Shown one piece after another: positions 1,818 to 9,344 of a DNA stretch of 64,000 bases; positions within the stretch are counted from its first letter, which is position 1; the number at the start of each line of letters is the position of its first letter. The DNA comes from Escherichia coli (GTDB taxonomy: Bacteria; Pseudomonadota; Gammaproteobacteria; Enterobacterales; Enterobacteriaceae). The notes below the pieces were generated by a model. That model saw nothing but the letters and a program-made list of their open reading frames with translations, was not told the origin of the DNA and ran no database searches. Location of the stretch: NCBI RefSeq assembly GCF_003334255.1, contig NZ_QOWU01000004.1. One strand, 5' to 3'. A program made the position numbers and the translations under genes.

Positions 1818-2903
1818 TTAAATACTGGCAATACTCTCACGCAAAATCCGCAGCACCGTCTCTTCACCGCTGCGATTCGGGTTAATGCGAATCGCACAAT
1901 GTTCTGATTGTGGATTCGCCTGGCGAAACGTTCCGGAAAGGCGATAAAAGAGCGGCGGGATTTCATATTTCGACTCTGCACCCACCGGGTAAGGCAAGGC
2001 ACCGCGCTTTTGCGCCTCTTCCAGCACTCTGGCGGCAATCGGCTGATGAAACTCGACAATCAACACCTTCGACTGCGCATTAGCAATCACCGCGCTTTTC
2101 ACTTCCGGCACCGCACCACCGTTAAGCAAAGCCAGCAACCGTTCAGATACCCCTGCCTGCACCGCGTGCATCACTGGCGCAAACACCAGACCACGCAATA
2201 CTTCCAGCGCCTGTGCGCCCTGGATCTGGCTACCGCCGGAGTAAAGCGTGGCGCGAATACGGTTGATAACATCAGCATCGCCGACCACTGCACCAACACC
2301 CTCTGGCCCAAATAGCTTGAAGCAGGAAAATGTCGAGACATTCGCGCCGCATTCACAGCCGATTCGAGCCACCTTCATCACCGCATAGTTGTCATCGGTT
2401 AACGCTGGAACACCTGCCGCGCGCAACGTTGCCAGCACATCTGCCAGCACGTAGCTGTCCTGCGGCTGCTGGCGCGTATGCTGCACCAGCGCCGCATCCG
2501 GTTGTTGCTCGTCGACGACCTGCTTCAGTGCCGACAGGTCATTGAAATCAACAGTAATAAGCGTCAGCCCCATCTGCTCAATAATAACCCGTGTCGTCGG
2601 GTAAACAGGCGCGTCATGCACCAGAAGACGCTGCCCCGGTTTGAGCAAAGCCGCCAGCCCGGCGCGAATCGCGCCAGTCCCCGCGCCCTGCACCAGCGCC
2701 GCAGCCTGTGCGTGAAATGCATCAGCCAGCACCTGTTCCACACGCTGGGTAACGCGCGGTTGATTCAGTCCTGGCGTTAAGCCTAAATCACCGCCAGTAA
2801 GAAACTCGCTGCCGGGGAAATGGCGACAAATGCTATCCACCAGCGCAAACTGCTTTTGCTGCGCCTCAATAATCGTCAGGCTTTGCAGAGGAAACGTCTT
2901 CAT
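1818..2903 (-). CDS. yhfS: Uncharacterized PLP-dependent enzyme (SelA-like / aminotransferase fold)
   Basis: 361-aa ORF; glycine-rich segment and a candidate PLP-lysine motif (FSCFKLFGPEG); last gene of the yhfZ-yhfS cluster. Confidence 0.88.
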   Translation of the reverse strand: MKTFPLQSLTIIEAQQKQFALVDSICRHFPGSEFLTGGDLGLTPGLNQPRVTQRVEQVLADAFHAQAAALVQGAGTGAIRAGLAALLKPGQRLLVHDAPVYPTTRVIIEQMGLTLITVDFNDLSALKQVVDEQQPDAALVQHTRQQPQDSYVLADVLATLRAAGVPALTDDNYAVMKVARIGCECGANVSTFSCFKLFGPEGVGAVVGDADVINRIRATLYSGGSQIQGAQALEVLRGLVFAPVMHAVQAGVSERLLALLNGGAVPEVKSAVIANAQSKVLIVEFHQPIAARVLEEAQKRGALPYPVGAESKYEIPPLFYRLSGTFRQANPQSEHCAIRINPNRSGEETVLRILRESIASI

Positions 2904-2914
2904 AGGTGCCTTCC

Positions 2915-4219
2915 TTAAGCCGGAACGAACAGGCCAAGCCAGTAAAGAACATTCAGCAGAATACCGGTGATCATTACTGCCACGACCGGTGCCGCCATTT
3001 TCTGTACCGGACGGCCCAGGGATTCGTTGAGGAAGTAAATGGCAACCGCGATAGAGAATCCGGTATAACCCGCCATCTTAATTGCTGCGAAAATCGAACC
3101 GACCAGCAGCGCCACTTCCATCAGCATATTCATGGCGTTACGGATGTTATCCGACGCATTACGCACCGACGGGTAGCGTCCCAGCCATTTGCCGATCGAA
3201 CGAAGCAGCAAGACTTCCGCCGAAATAACCACTGCGCCTAATACCGCTGCAACCATCGGATTCGGCGAGAGATAGCCCACCGCATAAACAAAGGTAAAGC
3301 CCGCAACTGCATACACACCCGTTGCTAACGCGGTGGTGGCAATCAACGGCACAAACCCCAGTCCGCGCATAAATTCTGCCAGAGCCGCCTGATTAATCAG
3401 CGTTTGCGATTGTTCCGGCGTTACGCCTGCGGAATATGCTTTCTCCAGTGTGAAGATCGACACTTCACTGCCAGCAAAAATCTTCATGCTGGCAACGGCG
3501 GCAATCAATGCTCCCACGATGGCGATATAGGGTAAGTTTTTGATAATCCGTGACGTGCGTTCTTCAAACACCGAAAGCCCGCTGGCATCAATGTCATTTT
3601 CATCACGATGACGCAGGTCGTGAGTTATCGCGATCCCCAGCAGCATCACCATGCCAATAAAGATTTCGATGGATTCAGGGTTAAGATGTGGGAAATAGCG
3701 CACGACTACCACACGGGTCATCAGTACCACCACGGCGGCGATCAGACTTTGCTTCCAGCCAAACTGGTAGAAAATCGCCACCAGCGGGAACAGTGCAAAA
3801 GCTGAAACCACCGGCGAGCTTAATTCCCCCAGGCTACCTAATACATCCACCGGCAGCGCGGTCAGCAGCTGGTTTACTGGCAACAGGCAAGTAAGGATCA
3901 ACACGCCCCAGATAGCGCCAAGACCAAACGCCATCAGGCTGTTTATCGCCAGGACGCCGAGGATATCGGTAGGAAGAAAGAGTAACCATGCGTTGAGCAG
4001 CCCGGTTTTCAGGGTAAAAGAGATCCCCACCGAGGCCACAAAACCAATGCTCAGACCAAAAGCGATACTCCCCGCCTCGCGACGGTTCATATAGCCTTCA
4101 ATCAGTTGCGGCAGGATCGGGCGGATGCCGTCATGAAAAACAGCCGCCGAGCGATGCGCCAGAAGCGATGTCATACCCGTCAGGCACGCCACCACGATAA
4201 TCTGAATATACAGATCCAT
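2915..4219 (-). CDS. yhfT: Uncharacterized polytopic inner-membrane protein, putative transporter
   Basis: 434-aa ORF with many hydrophobic helices across its length; 11-nt gap to yhfS. Confidence 0.88.
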   Translation of the reverse strand: MDLYIQIIVVACLTGMTSLLAHRSAAVFHDGIRPILPQLIEGYMNRREAGSIAFGLSIGFVASVGISFTLKTGLLNAWLLFLPTDILGVLAINSLMAFGLGAIWGVLILTCLLPVNQLLTALPVDVLGSLGELSSPVVSAFALFPLVAIFYQFGWKQSLIAAVVVLMTRVVVVRYFPHLNPESIEIFIGMVMLLGIAITHDLRHRDENDIDASGLSVFEERTSRIIKNLPYIAIVGALIAAVASMKIFAGSEVSIFTLEKAYSAGVTPEQSQTLINQAALAEFMRGLGFVPLIATTALATGVYAVAGFTFVYAVGYLSPNPMVAAVLGAVVISAEVLLLRSIGKWLGRYPSVRNASDNIRNAMNMLMEVALLVGSIFAAIKMAGYTGFSIAVAIYFLNESLGRPVQKMAAPVVAVMITGILLNVLYWLGLFVPA

Positions 4220-4230
4220 AGTCGTGCCTT

Positions 4231-4584
4231 TTATTTCAGATGGTTAATCAGCATCGGAATCGCGTGTTCGACGTGCTCAACGGAAAGGCCAAACGCCACT
4301 TTTCCTTCAGCGATCATTTTGGCGATATGCTCGTCTTTCGCTTTAATGCCTGGTTTGGCAATGGTGCAACTTTTGTTATAGCCTATCACCGCGATGGCAA
4401 TCGACAATGCCGCGCCCGCACCGGTATTACACGCGCCGATGTAATAATCCAGTTGCCCGGATTTCACCTTCATTGCCGCTTCCATGTCGTTGTGAATGAA
4501 AACTTCAAAACAGCCAGGAGCCGTCGCTTCAATAGTTTTTTTAATCTGCTCACGCTGTAAGCCTGCAACGCCAATCTTTTTCAT
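4231..4584 (-). CDS. yhfU: Small uncharacterized protein (DUF2620-type)
   Basis: ORF track 4231..4623 (130 aa); internal ATG at 4584 (MKKIGVAGL...) gives the 117-aa form I recall; start choice is uncertain. Confidence 0.75.
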   Translation of the reverse strand: MKKIGVAGLQREQIKKTIEATAPGCFEVFIHNDMEAAMKVKSGQLDYYIGACNTGAGAALSIAIAVIGYNKSCTIAKPGIKAKDEHIAKMIAEGKVAFGLSVEHVEHAIPMLINHLK

Positions 4585-4594
4585 GAGTCTGTCC

Positions 4595-7859: not shown

Positions 7860-7942
7860 CTTGTTGCCTCGTTTCTGTTCCTTGAATTAAATATTCATTT
7901 TTTTGAATATTTAGGTTGTGCGACGTGGATTTGTCGGGAGCT

Positions 7943-8305
7943 TCAAACCTCTTCGTTAGCAGCCATCCATAATCCATAAAGGTTGGCCAGCAAATAGCCT
8001 TCTTCACACGGGTTAACTTCCAGTGCGAATTCCTTCAACAACACCTGATGCAATTGCACAACGGCTTGCCAGTGGCTGGATTGCGCCAGTTCTGCCAGCA
8101 ACTCGTTATCCAGCGGCTCTATTTCTTCACCACGGCGACTGCGCATCAGTGCACTCGCCATATGTGTCATCGCCATCGTTCCTTGCTCACTGCGCACCGG
8201 CAGATGGCACTCTGTTTCCAGTACGTTGACGACCTGCATCATGCCTTTGCAGATGTCCTTATCAATAACGCCTGCCTCGCAAAGCAGGTTGAGTCTGGTT
8301 TCCAT
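7943..8305 (-). CDS. yhfY: Small uncharacterized protein (PRD-like regulatory domain)
   Basis: ORF track 7943..8347 begins with GTG; internal ATG at 8303-8305 (METRLNLLCE...) gives the 120-aa product; helical composition. Confidence 0.75.
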   Translation of the reverse strand: METRLNLLCEAGVIDKDICKGMMQVVNVLETECHLPVRSEQGTMAMTHMASALMRSRRGEEIEPLDNELLAELAQSSHWQAVVQLHQVLLKEFALEVNPCEEGYLLANLYGLWMAANEEV

Positions 8306-8321
8306 ATCAGATGCCTTTCGT

Positions 8322-9227
8322 TTAATAACTCGGTTCCTGTTCCCCACTCACTACCCGTTGTTGATGGGCGAGCAGGGCGTGTTTATCTACAACGGCACGC
8401 AGCAGTTGTTGCATTGGGTAATCATCGACTCGCGTCAGGACCACGGCTTCGGTGGCCTGTAAAAATCGCGGATCGTCTGTGAGCGGCGTCGCCTCTAATC
8501 CCAGCATGGTCAGTTCGTTTTCCGCCACCACGTTCCAGATCACCGCATCGACATCGCCTTTAACAATGCGTTGTAAACTCTCGTGATAAGAGAGATCGAC
8601 TCGTTCCACATCACTACCGCCAAAAAAAACATCGGTCATGATTTTCTGATCCGCCGAACGGTTATCCAGCCCCACGCGCTTCACGTTTGCGGACTCGCCT
8701 TTACGGCAAATCAACTGGTGCTCGCCAACGTAGGTGTGCGGCCCCAACTCCAGCGCGAGGCATAAGCCTTTTTGCGTGAGATAACTTTCCGCCGCTAGTC
8801 GCGAAACCACCGCCATGTCATACACGCCATTAAGCAGACACTCCACGCGAATATCCGCGCCACGCATGTGCGCATAGTAAAAAGGAATGCCATCAAACTG
8901 GGCTTTCAATCCGCTCGCCAGGCCTTCGTACAAACGGGTATAGGGCAAGGGCATTGCACATACCACGTTGTTGATATCCACATGAGTCAGCAATGCTTTG
9001 TTATCCATCTCGACCAGATAACTGCCATTGCGCCCACGGCGTTCAATCCGTATCGCTCCGCTTGATTCCAGCGTTTTCAACGCGGCCTGCGTCAGGCCAA
9101 CGGATGAACGGCATTCATTTGCCAGCTCATCTATGGTTTTCAATCGATTACCGCACTTTTCACCCAACAAATAACGGGCCAGCGTCGTGATGACGACGCC
9201 TTCTTTTTTGATAAACGTTCGACGCAT
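8322..9227 (-). CDS. yhfZ: Putative transcriptional regulator (N-terminal HTH plus ligand-binding-like domain), first gene of the cluster
   Basis: 301-aa ORF; N-terminal HTH-like segment (LKTIDELANECRSSVGLTQAALKTLESSGAIRIERRGRNGSYLV). Confidence 0.85.
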   Translation of the reverse strand: MRRTFIKKEGVVITTLARYLLGEKCGNRLKTIDELANECRSSVGLTQAALKTLESSGAIRIERRGRNGSYLVEMDNKALLTHVDINNVVCAMPLPYTRLYEGLASGLKAQFDGIPFYYAHMRGADIRVECLLNGVYDMAVVSRLAAESYLTQKGLCLALELGPHTYVGEHQLICRKGESANVKRVGLDNRSADQKIMTDVFFGGSDVERVDLSYHESLQRIVKGDVDAVIWNVVAENELTMLGLEATPLTDDPRFLQATEAVVLTRVDDYPMQQLLRAVVDKHALLAHQQRVVSGEQEPSY

Positions 9228-9344
9228 AATAAATTTTCAGTAAATTGAATATTTATATCTTCAGGAATTTGAAGATAAGGCGCAACAGCGAGATGTGGAA
9301 ACGGCGAGGCACTTCACATTTTTTCGGATTATTGCAAATGAGGA

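Follow-up and report, generated by a model that had tools for sequence, protein, structure and literature searches.

Organization and boundaries of the yhf cluster

The analyzed window comprises 64,000 nucleotides of the Escherichia coli contig NZ_QOWU01000004.1, and its ORF list contains eight intact ORFs on the minus strand between positions 1818 and 9227. Coordinates taken from this list and from RefSeq gene calls on an identical E. coli chromosome bore out the eight co-directional, tightly packed genes described in the first-pass annotation; the cluster itself, yhfZYXW-php-yhfUTS, is already known and annotated in E. coli. The gene yhfZ (8322 to 9227) encodes a regulator that joins a winged-helix domain (HTH_41) to a sensor domain resembling periplasmic binding proteins (YhfZ_C), and yhfY (7943 to 8305) encodes a stand-alone PTS regulation domain (PRD) protein of 120 amino acids. 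These are followed by yhfX (6696 to 7859), encoding a fold-type III PLP enzyme with Ala_racemase_N and YhfX-like_C domains; yhfW (5470 to 6696), a phosphopentomutase-like metalloenzyme of the alkaline phosphatase superfamily; and php (4595 to 5473), a binuclear-metal amidohydrolase of the PTE family. The remaining genes are yhfU (4231 to 4584), encoding a 117-amino-acid alpha/beta protein (DUF2620) with an RpiB/LacAB-type fold and a cysteine loop; yhfT (2915 to 4219), a polytopic membrane protein (PF10797) and presumed carrier; and yhfS (1818 to 2903), a fold-type I PLP enzyme resembling the gamma-lyases of Cys/Met metabolism. Spacing had been given as 0 to 11 nt apart from 83 nt between yhfY and yhfX. 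The 83-nt gap stands, as do overlaps of 1 nt (yhfX/yhfW) and 4 nt (yhfW/php) and gaps of 10 nt (php-yhfU) and 11 nt (yhfU-yhfT and yhfT-yhfS), but yhfZ and yhfY are separated by 16 nt.

Both boundary elements previously proposed were located. Upstream, the intrinsic terminator of the trpS operon lies at 9349 to 9370 on the minus strand (9-bp stem with five G-C pairs, followed by a T-run) and is preceded by REP elements. Downstream, a REP and box-C-like repeat occupies about 1672 to 1790, between the convergent frlR and yhfS genes; it was recognized by sub-threshold matches to the REP-derived naRNA4 family together with sequence inspection.

Distribution, conserved core, and selection

A core consisting of the PRD protein, the PTE-fold hydrolase, YhfU, YhfT, YhfX, and YhfW was identified in distant bacteria in shuffled order. 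Its recurrence in different gene orders argues that the genes are coupled in function, as opposed to having inherited a common order, and as the yhf genes also travel together in other genera, their co-directional packing is not a chance arrangement. Across the genera compared, yhfW, where present, always adjoins yhfX, and yhfU is always encoded beside the membrane protein. YhfZ is more widespread; yhfS was found only in Escherichia-like and Hafnia clusters, and YhfS is an accessory member. In Hafnia the full set of eight genes is located elsewhere in the chromosome, and the Serratia cluster likewise lies at a different site. Yersinia ruckeri lacks both yhfW and yhfS; thus, the enzyme set is not fixed. 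No kinase gene was present in any genomic context of the cluster compared, and the accessory genes encode phosphatases, a Cof-type HAD enzyme at one locus (L008) and a PhoC-type enzyme at another (L018).

In the window the cluster adjoins frlABCDR, an accessory operon that serves to catabolize a modified amino acid and has a GntR-type regulator, and from this adjacency it had been suggested that yhf may act in breaking down a further glycated amino acid (an Amadori product). The substrate predicted below, with an amino acid and a sugar-phosphate-like part, would be compatible with a phosphorylated Amadori compound. However, the yhf cluster is present in 5062 of 5426 complete E. coli genomes (93%), whereas frl is present in 3297 (61%), so the inference from adjacency fails. 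In an E. coli-like contig (L004), yhfS directly adjoins yhfL at a clean junction that lacks frl, and other Enterobacteriaceae retain trpS-yhfZ...yhfS with neither frlR nor frlD in the flanks; the relocated Hafnia and Serratia clusters also count against a link. Furthermore, the two operons are convergent, have separate regulators, share no homologous enzyme or transporter, and are distributed independently, and yhf encodes no deglycase (SIS) or kinase homolog. Catabolism of an Amadori product in functional association with frl is therefore considered very improbable.

Purifying selection acts on each of the eight genes, with dN/dS values of 0.03 to 0.15 against orthologs at a dS of about 1 or more. 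The value for yhfZ is 0.05, and the yhfU-yhfT pair is the most constrained part of the cluster (0.03 to 0.05), similar to trpS. By these values the genes are not in decay. If the cluster were a cryptic remnant that is decaying and has lost its role in E. coli, this could account for the little expression or phenotype reported in the literature searched, for the approximately 7% of E. coli genomes without the cluster, and for the loss of two genes in Y. ruckeri. The intactness of all eight ORFs and the conservation of the regulatory palindromes described below argue against decay, and the selection data already largely refute it, leaving it the slightest of chances.

Regulators and conserved palindromes

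YhfZ scored 373.6 bits against NCBIfam model NF041241 (YhfZ_full; cut-off, 260) and contains the Pfam domains HTH_41 and YhfZ_C; the structure of its C-terminal domain has been solved (PDB 2OZZ, titled "hypothetical protein yhfZ"). The YhfY family profile matched the PRD structures of LicT (1TLV; E = 2.7e-4) and GlcT (3RIO), as well as 3NUF and 3GWH. His48 of YhfY is invariant and was aligned with the first phosphorylatable PRD histidine; judged from these alignments, YhfY is a genuine PRD protein with a conserved histidine.

Three conserved 20-bp palindromes (ATATTCA-N6-TGAATAT) were identified before yhfZ and before yhfX. Box 1 (9257 to 9276; ATCTTCA-N6-TGAAGAT) lies upstream of yhfZ, 24 bp centre-to-centre from box 2 (9231 to 9254; AAATATTCA-N6-TGAAAATTT), which ends 3 nt before the yhfZ ATG, with its 20-bp core ending 5 nt before it. 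Box 3 (7889 to 7912), inside the yhfY-yhfX gap, is the perfect palindrome AAATATTCA-AAAAAA-TGAATATTT. The pattern shared by boxes 2 and 3 has no other occurrence in the 64 kb of the window, against a chance expectation of 0.00. Across Enterobacterales the palindromes are fixed in position while their flanks diverge: box 1 is kept in at least eight enterobacterial orthologous regions, box 2 is likewise conserved, and box 3 hardly varies among Hafnia, Serratia, and six other Enterobacteriaceae loci and is degenerate in Y. ruckeri. The palindromes are probably the operator of YhfZ, the one ground for this assignment being that YhfZ is the sole DNA-binding protein encoded in the cluster; against an operator, the same sequences would form RNA hairpins as well. 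There are probably two promoter regions, preceding yhfZ and yhfX, with the same palindrome at each; no strong sigma-70 sites were detected in a promoter scan.

Predicted enzymes

With the exception of YhfS, the domain calls of the first-pass annotation agreed with Pfam and NCBIfam searches. YhfX, of which a crystal structure titled "uncharacterized" is available (4KBX), has a weak match to ornithine racemase in NCBIfam and an invariant Lys61 within the motif M(T/S)KQxGRNP. An alignment of YhfW with the Bacillus cereus phosphopentomutase (3M8W) revealed that the motifs DS.G.G, G.DT..GH.E, D..GH, ADHGNDP, and HTRE, including the metal-binding residues and the nucleophilic Thr motif of DeoB, are kept, although its cap domain is divergent and it scores under the cut-offs of the canonical, curated deoB models. 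Php scored 655 bits against NF007373 and far under the cut-offs of the phospho-furanose lactonase (102 bits; cut-off, 630) and OPH (100 bits; cut-off, 500) models. His12, His14, Glu125, His158, His186, and Asp243 of Php are invariant, and the binuclear-metal ligands listed for PTER (H26, H28, and E169) are kept, including the glutamate (Glu125). By these comparisons, the catalytic or cofactor residues of YhfW, YhfX, and Php are intact.

YhfS had been called SelA-like, but no SelA match was obtained in the domain searches, and any such likeness is at best remote. Instead, Aminotran_1_2 and YhfS-like_C domains and weak Cys_Met_Meta_PP matches were found, and the best NCBIfam match was methionine gamma-lyase (E = 5e-11), consistent with a Cys/Met-lyase-like enzyme. 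Its structure (4J8L) is titled "uncharacterized."

The YhfU-YhfT pair

The earlier description of YhfT as a membrane protein with a partner holds, but YhfU is more than a small partner, as it has an RpiB-type fold and an invariant cysteine (Cys52) in the invariant loop GAC(N)TG.G.A. Its likeness to RpiB/LacAB sugar-phosphate isomerases is one of fold type only: sequence-profile matches were not significant (E = 0.2 to 0.9), and YhfU is shorter and encoded beside a membrane protein. The YhfT family is small, accounting for just 305 clusters (50% identity) in a set of 1.84 billion representatives, and YhfT (434 amino acids) has a weak internal repeat. No cross-matches to other Pfam families and no significant match or solved relative in the PDB were found; weak PDB matches to DASS, NhaC, and TRAP-DctM carriers all hint at an anion or ion elevator carrier.

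A novel phosphotransferase-type group translocation would assign YhfT the role of EIIC, with Cys52 of YhfU as an EIIB-like phosphate carrier and the PRD of YhfY reading the phosphorylation state, so that the substrate would arrive already phosphorylated for YhfW and Php. Group translocation is considered unlikely.

Proposed function

No substrate, inducer, or pathway was named for these genes in RefSeq/PGAP (September 2026) or NCBIfam (June 2026), in PDB titles ("uncharacterized protein YhfS/YhfX/yhfZ"), or in a search of 8 million full texts from a library that covers a minority of subscription journals, in line with the first-pass annotation, which had stated that no substrate, inducer, or phenotype was assigned. 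Also supported was its view that the genes form a consistent set for handling a small molecule, served by a dedicated regulator and by a membrane protein that has a small partner. The present comparison adds the recurring shuffled core, the accessory status of YhfS, the three conserved palindromes, the fold and cysteine loop of YhfU, purifying selection, and independence from frl.

The favored reading, to which we give nearly even credence, is that the cluster is an inducible, normally repressed module that takes up and catabolizes a phosphorylated compound of the alpha-amino-acid type. The two PLP enzymes suggest an alpha-amino-acid center in the substrate; the phosphopentomutase-like enzyme and the consistent lack of a kinase, whichever version of the cluster is considered, suggest a phosphate ester; and the PTE-fold hydrolase suggests a hydrolyzable ester, amide, or lactone bond. 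Candidate substrates would include amino-sugar-acid phosphates in free, lactone, or N-acyl form, amino acids that are O-phosphorylated or ester-linked, and comparable molecules. We infer that YhfT and the tightly coupled YhfU would import the compound, Php would open its ester, amide, or lactone bond, YhfW would move or transfer the phosphate, and YhfX would perform PLP chemistry at the alpha-carbon (epimerization or elimination), with an extra beta/gamma-lyase-type step by YhfS in Escherichia and Hafnia. YhfZ may act on the three palindromes before yhfZ and yhfX and sense a ligand via its binding-protein-like domain, and YhfY may link expression to the PTS phosphorylation state. The pathway drawn here has gaps, since dehydrogenase, aldolase, and kinase genes are all absent from the cluster, and it must deliver its products to enzymes from other loci. 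A further point against this reading is that YhfU, assigned a part in import beside YhfT, finds its best structural match in an isomerase rather than in a transport component.

Salvage, repair, or detoxification of an endogenous or damaged metabolite, or its export, would be a non-nutritional alternative in keeping with the lack of a reported growth phenotype in the literature searched, with the promiscuity of Php-type enzymes (the mammalian homolog PTER hydrolyzes endogenous N-acetyltaurine and N-acetyl-beta-alanine), and with the occurrence of the YhfU-YhfT pair alone among housekeeping genes in some genomes. Dedicated ligand-sensing and PRD regulators, a patchy, horizontal distribution, and movement of the genes as one block typify accessory nutrient-use modules rather than housekeeping repair, making this alternative distinctly unlikely.

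Similarity to known systems

For the nutrient-use module, a partial parallel is provided by the dgaABCDEF genes of Salmonella for catabolism of D-glucosaminate, which is both an amino-sugar acid and an alpha-amino acid, as they combine PTS-linked control with a PLP lyase whose substrate is phosphorylated. The mannose-family PTS, sigma-54 activator, and KDGP aldolase used by dga are all absent from yhf, and the DgaE model was not among the NCBIfam matches listed for YhfS.

The enterococcal and Aeromonas cluster EF_0829-EF_0839/AHA_3910, itself uncharacterized, encodes a PRD protein, a glycine-rich SFCGS protein, DUF4312, DUF4311, and DUF4310 proteins, an amidohydrolase, a DgaE-family PLP lyase, and a KDGP aldolase. 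It shares with yhf a stand-alone PRD, a small cysteine-loop protein, one or more membrane proteins, an amidohydrolase-superfamily enzyme, and a PLP enzyme. Weak similarities of YhfY to TIGR03582 (EF_0829) and of YhfU family members to TIGR03577 (EF_0830), all far under the family cut-offs, were also found. In yhf, the single YhfT replaces the DUF4311 and DUF4310 proteins, the parallel in the membrane part being one of architecture; the hydrolase is of the PTE-fold and not the deacetylase type, there is no aldolase, and YhfX and YhfW are additional.

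Organization and boundaries of the yhf cluster

Gene calls were taken from the ORF list of the window and from the RefSeq annotation of one identical complete genome, which agreed on eight intact genes, all on the minus strand: yhfZ (8322-9227), yhfY (7943-8305), yhfX (6696-7859), yhfW (5470-6696), php (4595-5473), yhfU (4231-4584), yhfT (2915-4219), and yhfS (1818-2903). The surrounding region, from 1500 to 9600, is 100% identical to several complete E. coli genomes. From yhfZ to yhfS the intergenic spacings are 16, 83, -1, -4, 10, 11, and 11 nt. The tight, co-directional packing described in the first-pass annotation was thus reproduced at the same positions by both sources, with one correction: the range of 0- to 11-nt gaps or short overlaps given for it does not cover the 16-nt gap between yhfZ and yhfY, and the other spacings stand. 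The longest ORFs of yhfY (7943-8347, 134 aa) and yhfU (4231-4623, 130 aa) start with GTG and would overlap the gene upstream; the family alignments support the annotated ATG starts, which give shorter products and lie at 8305 (yhfY) and 4584 (yhfU).

A terminator scan returned 11 matches within the cluster compared with 10.0 expected by chance. The cluster has the layout of an operon: its genes are co-directional, they are separated by short gaps or overlap slightly, and no strong terminator interrupts them. The sole convincing terminator in the scan was a clean hairpin with a T-run at 9370-9349, confirming that the trpS operon terminator lies just upstream of the cluster. Toward yhfZ, the trpS stop codon is followed by REP elements and then by this hairpin. 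The REP elements are two in number, of the BIME type, located at 9400-9495, with sub-threshold Rfam matches to naRNA4; one paper places the region upstream of yhfZ among BIME "attenuators." At the downstream end, the expected REP on the frlR side was also found, as a REP element and a box-C-like repeat (GGTCCCCTCGCCCCTTTGGGGAGAGGGTTAGGGTGAGGGGAAC) at 1672-1790, between the convergent frlR and yhfS genes. No classical terminator for yhfS was returned by the terminator scan.

An Rfam scan of the region identified no riboswitch or leader, only the sub-threshold, REP-derived naRNA4 matches. The riboswitch-prediction paper that names the operon cites positions kilobases away. A horizontal-transfer signature was rejected on the ordinary G+C content of the cluster (0.51 to 0.58).

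Conservation of the cluster and its independence from frl

The yhf cluster is present in 5,062 of 5,426 complete E. coli genomes (approximately 93%). All eight genes are under purifying selection when compared with orthologs at a dS of about 1 or more. Their dN/dS values range from 0.03 to 0.15, with yhfT and yhfU at the low end, and are similar to that of trpS; the ratios are approximate, as some dS values were saturated. That the cluster is a decaying remnant is scarcely credible for eight intact genes under such selection. In 984 of 5,084 E. coli genomes the cluster (1818-9227) shares just 90 to 95% nucleotide identity with the window, which seems high in number for a within-species chromosomal locus and may reflect divergent alleles or recombination.

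The gene neighborhoods of YhfT relatives sharing 25 to 88% identity were then compared. A core comprising the PRD protein, the PTE hydrolase, YhfU, YhfT, YhfX, and YhfW recurs in varying gene order at seven comparison loci (L008, L010, L012, L015, L016, L017, and L018), and yhfX and yhfW are adjacent in every core cluster seen. YhfZ accompanies the core in gammaproteobacteria and also in the distant locus L010, whereas among the clusters compared YhfS turned up in those of Escherichia-like bacteria and Hafnia alone. By source names, the family occurs in Escherichia, Enterobacter, Hafnia, Obesumbacterium, Serratia, Yersinia, Shimwellia, Pluralibacter, Vibrio, Photobacterium, Enterovibrio, and Aeromonas. 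A metagenome scan recovered almost exclusively E. coli copies, and L087 to L098 were its only informative additions.

The first-pass annotation stated that no substrate or phenotype had been assigned to these genes, and none was found. RefSeq/PGAP names (genomes to September 2026) are generic, NCBIfam (June 2026) provides family-level names only, and the three PDB entries carry only "uncharacterized" or "hypothetical" titles. Among 8 million full-text papers and preprints, a collection outside which most subscription journals fall, no functional study of the cluster was identified, only mentions in lists; YhfZ is mentioned in a lacritin-peptide resistance screen and YhfW in a DNA pull-down table. 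The earlier reading of the cluster as an orphan module is supported. It has long been annotated, and what is new lies in its chemistry and its unusual carrier pair and not in its existence.

A role in the catabolism of a glycated amino acid had been inferred from the adjoining fructoselysine operon. The basis for this link fails, as the two operons are distributed independently and have no homologous parts in common. The frl operon was found in 3,297 of the 5,426 complete E. coli genomes, compared with 5,062 for yhf, and in an E. coli-like contig missing frl (L004, 11317-12676) yhfS lies directly beside yhfL, a clean junction characteristic of frl-less genomes. Other Enterobacteriaceae keep the trpS-yhfZ...yhfS arrangement with no frl genes within a 7- to 8-kb flank, and in Hafnia and Serratia the yhf block occupies other chromosomal sites. 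We regard frl-linked Amadori catabolism, the idea prompted by adjacency in the window, as very improbable. The frl operon itself (frlABCDR; 3294-8167 in the comparison locus L001) is a presence/absence polymorphism in E. coli.

A conserved palindrome and the predicted regulators

Three copies of the palindrome ATATTCA-N6-TGAATAT, unique within the window, precede the predicted transcription units of the cluster, as is expected of a shared cis-regulatory site. A perfect palindrome, AAATATTCA-AAAAAA-TGAATATTT, is located at 7889-7912, within the gap between yhfY and yhfX, while a near copy lies directly before the yhfZ start codon (9231-9254) with a second copy beside it (9257-9276). Allowing up to two mismatches, no further occurrence of the 24-nt pattern was found in the 64-kb window, and none was expected by chance. 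The boxes keep their positions in Hafnia, in Serratia, and at six other Enterobacteriaceae loci, where the surrounding bases have diverged, and the two boxes before yhfZ keep a center-to-center distance of 24 bp wherever both are clear. Serratia harbors an additional box before yhfY, Yersinia ruckeri has degenerate copies, and one Vibrio species carries CTCA-N6-TGAG at the equivalent site. Judged from these alignments, the conserved boxes are the phylogenetic footprint of a putative dimer-binding operator.

YhfZ combines a winged helix of the HTH_41 family with a YhfZ_C domain that resembles binding proteins and whose structure (2OZZ) was deposited as a "hypothetical protein." Because it is the only DNA-binding protein of the cluster, we infer that YhfZ is the obvious candidate for recognizing the boxes. 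Once transcribed, the palindromes would form hairpins as well, and the boxes may act at the RNA level. A second regulated promoter in the yhfY-yhfX gap fits the operon table reproduced in PMC4448311, in which yhfX to yhfS form one unit separate from yhfZY.

As a single sequence, YhfY gave no Pfam match; a profile built from eight family members matched LicT, GlcT, and BglG-type PRD structures (E values of 2.7e-4 to 4.4e-3). In the alignment, the first phosphorylatable PRD histidine corresponds to the invariant His48, and the second is replaced by Asn in enterics and retained as His in two distant members (L008 and L016). From its helical fold signature and conserved phosphorylatable histidine, YhfY qualifies as a PRD protein, one that contains no RNA-binding domain.

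Several other readings of these regions were considered and rejected. A sigma-54 or strong sigma-70 promoter upstream of yhfZ was ruled out by spacing, inspected by eye, and by a promoter scan. Reading the palindromes as ARG boxes of ArgR was rejected by eye, since the half-sites are differently oriented and spaced. One more TTCA-N6-TGAA core, the fourth, at 46400, was considered a chance match, as its flanks are G+C rich and it falls within a coding region.

Predicted enzymes

YhfX is a fold-type III PLP enzyme in which Pfam identifies Ala_racemase_N and a C-terminal domain of its own family (YhfX-like_C). The N-terminal PLP barrel has its Schiff-base lysine in the invariant Lys61, which bears out the earlier description of the protein as alanine-racemase-like; its structure (4KBX) is titled "uncharacterized." The sole characterized relative found in NCBIfam was ornithine racemase (E value of 1e-6), with the match confined to the N-terminal domain. 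YhfS is a fold-type I PLP enzyme (Pfam Aminotran_1_2, weak Cys_Met_Meta_PP, and YhfS-like_C), also with a structure titled "uncharacterized" (4J8L), and its best NCBIfam matches are methionine gamma-lyase and O-succinylhomoserine sulfhydrylase. The earlier comparison of YhfS with SelA was not upheld, as neither a SelA nor a DgaE model was among the matches listed for it, in which the lone SelA-related entry was TIGR03576 (E value of 1e-3).

An alignment of YhfW to 3M8W revealed that all phosphopentomutase metal and nucleophile motifs are retained, including the metal ligands and Thr nucleophile of an alkaline-phosphatase-type core, and that the cap domain is divergent. YhfW scored below the curated deoB cutoffs (TIGR01696, 145.8 versus 341.2; NF003766, 183.9 versus 256) and passed only the YhfW-type model NF009049. 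By its core motifs it can be called a phosphopentomutase-like metalloenzyme. The assignment of Php as an amidohydrolase-fold hydrolase agrees with its binuclear-metal TIM-barrel ligands, all of which are present and invariant (His12, His14, Glu125, His158, His186, and Asp243). Php too was below curated cutoffs, both for phospho-furanose lactonase (102.4 versus 630) and for OPH (100.5 versus 500). Its mammalian homolog PTER is now known to hydrolyze N-acetyltaurine and N-acetyl-beta-alanine, and PTE-fold enzymes of the Php branch can therefore be amidases and not just lactonases or esterases.

The YhfT-YhfU carrier pair and the origin of the phosphate

YhfT (PF10797) belongs to a rare family, with 305 clusters (50% identity) at an E value of 1e-3 among 1.84 billion representatives, and a scan of 65 YhfT relatives produced no Pfam cross-family matches. 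Its two halves align weakly to each other (hhalign E value of 1.5e-4, probability of 51%). YhfU (DUF2620) contains an invariant loop, GAC(N/E/S/Q)(T/S)G.G.A, that includes Cys52. A single-sequence AF2 model of YhfU was unusable (pLDDT of 43) and was replaced by a model of a YhfU-(GGGGS)5-YhfT fusion, built from an 89-row alignment in which 11 natural U-T pairs were supplemented with unpaired relatives of both proteins (pLDDT of 91.2, pTM of 0.84). The fusion model places the cysteine after strand 3, its position in RpiB; the loop aligns locally with RpiB-family loops, though not significantly at the level of sequence. YhfU is accordingly modeled with an RpiB-type fold, being Rossmann-like with a catalytic-type Cys in a C-x-T/S-G-x-G loop after strand 3. 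Its sequence gave no significant match to the RpiB/LacAB model (E values of 0.2 to 0.9), and Pfam returned DUF2620 only.

YhfU and YhfT are almost always found together and sometimes alone (L005, L006, and L011), and therefore the pair seems to have its own function. These lone pairs, at 9586-11341 in L005, in L006, and at 1432-3107 in L011, come from distant bacteria and lie among unrelated housekeeping genes, with the enzymes absent.

No kinase, dehydrogenase, or aldolase was found in any cluster version compared. PTS-like group translocation via Cys52 of YhfU would account for both the missing kinase and the PRD protein. This explanation fails the fold tests for EIIB and EIIC: the membrane component does not show an EIIC fold, and no EIIB-type phosphocarrier with its active Cys or His in a first-strand P-loop was found. 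None of the yhf-type clusters seen encodes an EIIA, a part that an unlinked EIIA could serve. Group translocation of this kind is considered unlikely. The pair and its PRD partner YhfY, together with related Gram-positive SFCGS/DUF4311/DUF4310 systems, could represent a previously unrecognized class of uptake system. Here a cysteine-loop protein of RpiB fold, docked to a membrane carrier of a novel kind, would either deliver phosphate to the substrate as it comes in, as a new PTS-like family, or convert the substrate chemically on entry. Such a class would explain the presence of phosphate-specific enzymes without any kinase and would be of high interest if true; at present it is a long shot.

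A proposed uptake and catabolism module

The closest parallel identified is an enterococcal cluster described in a VRE transposon annotation, which encodes a glycine-rich SFCGS protein, DUF4312, DUF4311, and DUF4310 proteins, an amidohydrolase, a DgaE-family PLP ammonia-lyase, and a KDGP aldolase. NCBIfam names indicate that the PRD protein EF_0829/AHA_3910 neighbors the SFCGS protein EF_0830/AHA_3911 in two organisms. Weak matches to these two models were obtained for the YhfY family (PRD model) and the YhfU family (SFCGS model), with E values of 1e-6 to 0.05. Because members of both families match the two neighboring enterococcal families, the systems look like variations on one theme, consisting of a PRD sensor, a small cysteine-loop protein, one or more membrane carriers, an amidohydrolase-fold enzyme, and PLP chemistry. 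By analogy with the Salmonella dga pathway, the enzymes on the enterococcal side suggest an amino-sugar-acid phosphate.

We propose as the most likely reading, though at somewhat less than even odds, that the yhf cluster is an inducible uptake and catabolism module for a substrate with an alpha-amino-acid center, a phosphate ester, and a hydrolyzable ester, amide, or lactone bond. In this module YhfT and YhfU would import the compound, Php would open it, YhfW would shift or transfer the phosphate, and a PLP step would be carried out by YhfX, plus YhfS in E. coli; YhfZ would act at the three boxes, and YhfY would link the system to the PTS. The origin of the phosphate is the main mechanistic uncertainty. 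Candidate substrates include amino-sugar-acid phosphates or lactones, O-phospho- or ester-linked amino acids, and N-acyl amino compounds, each of which fits parts of the evidence. The same set of genes could alternatively serve salvage or repair, which we hold to be improbable.

The cluster is among the larger operon-sized E. coli blocks still without an assigned function and is common to E. coli, Hafnia, Serratia, Yersinia, Vibrio, Photobacterium, and Aeromonas. Identification of its substrate would extend the best-studied bacterial metabolic map by a pathway and would probably reveal a gut or aquatic nutrient not yet recognized. Two domain families of unknown function, PF10797 (YhfT) and DUF2620, would gain one, as would, by analogy, the enterococcal SFCGS cluster on the VRE transposon. 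The question is now more testable, with a defined candidate operator, a minimal conserved gene set, and a chemical profile by which a substrate screen can be limited to phosphorylated compounds of the alpha-amino-acid type that contain an ester, amide, or lactone bond.

Variant clusters

Accessory genes differ between clusters and include a Cof-type HAD phosphatase in L008, a PhoC-type phosphatase in Serratia, and a PTS EIIC in L010. The last of these, of the glucose superfamily, lies at 5578-6894, directly after yhfW, in a cluster that also has YhfZ and a PRD protein. In Serratia (L018) yhfZ and yhfY are separated by an additional ORF of 294 aa (4880-5764) that matches no family. At 11362-17047, the PhoC-type acid phosphatase gene takes the place of yhfS, and after it, in the same orientation, come genes whose Pfam domains are those expected of gluconate kinase, GntP permease, Edd, and Eda. 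The Yersinia ruckeri cluster (L014) contains neither yhfW nor yhfS; a 188-nt gap between yhfX and php (8559-8747) marks where yhfW is missing, the yhfZ-proximal palindromes are degenerate, and this version may be decaying or remodeled. At 1068-3765 in L007, a YhfT relative has no adjoining yhfU, and the next gene, 22 nt beyond it, belongs to the Orn/Lys/Arg decarboxylase family, which may be a coincidental, conserved housekeeping arrangement.
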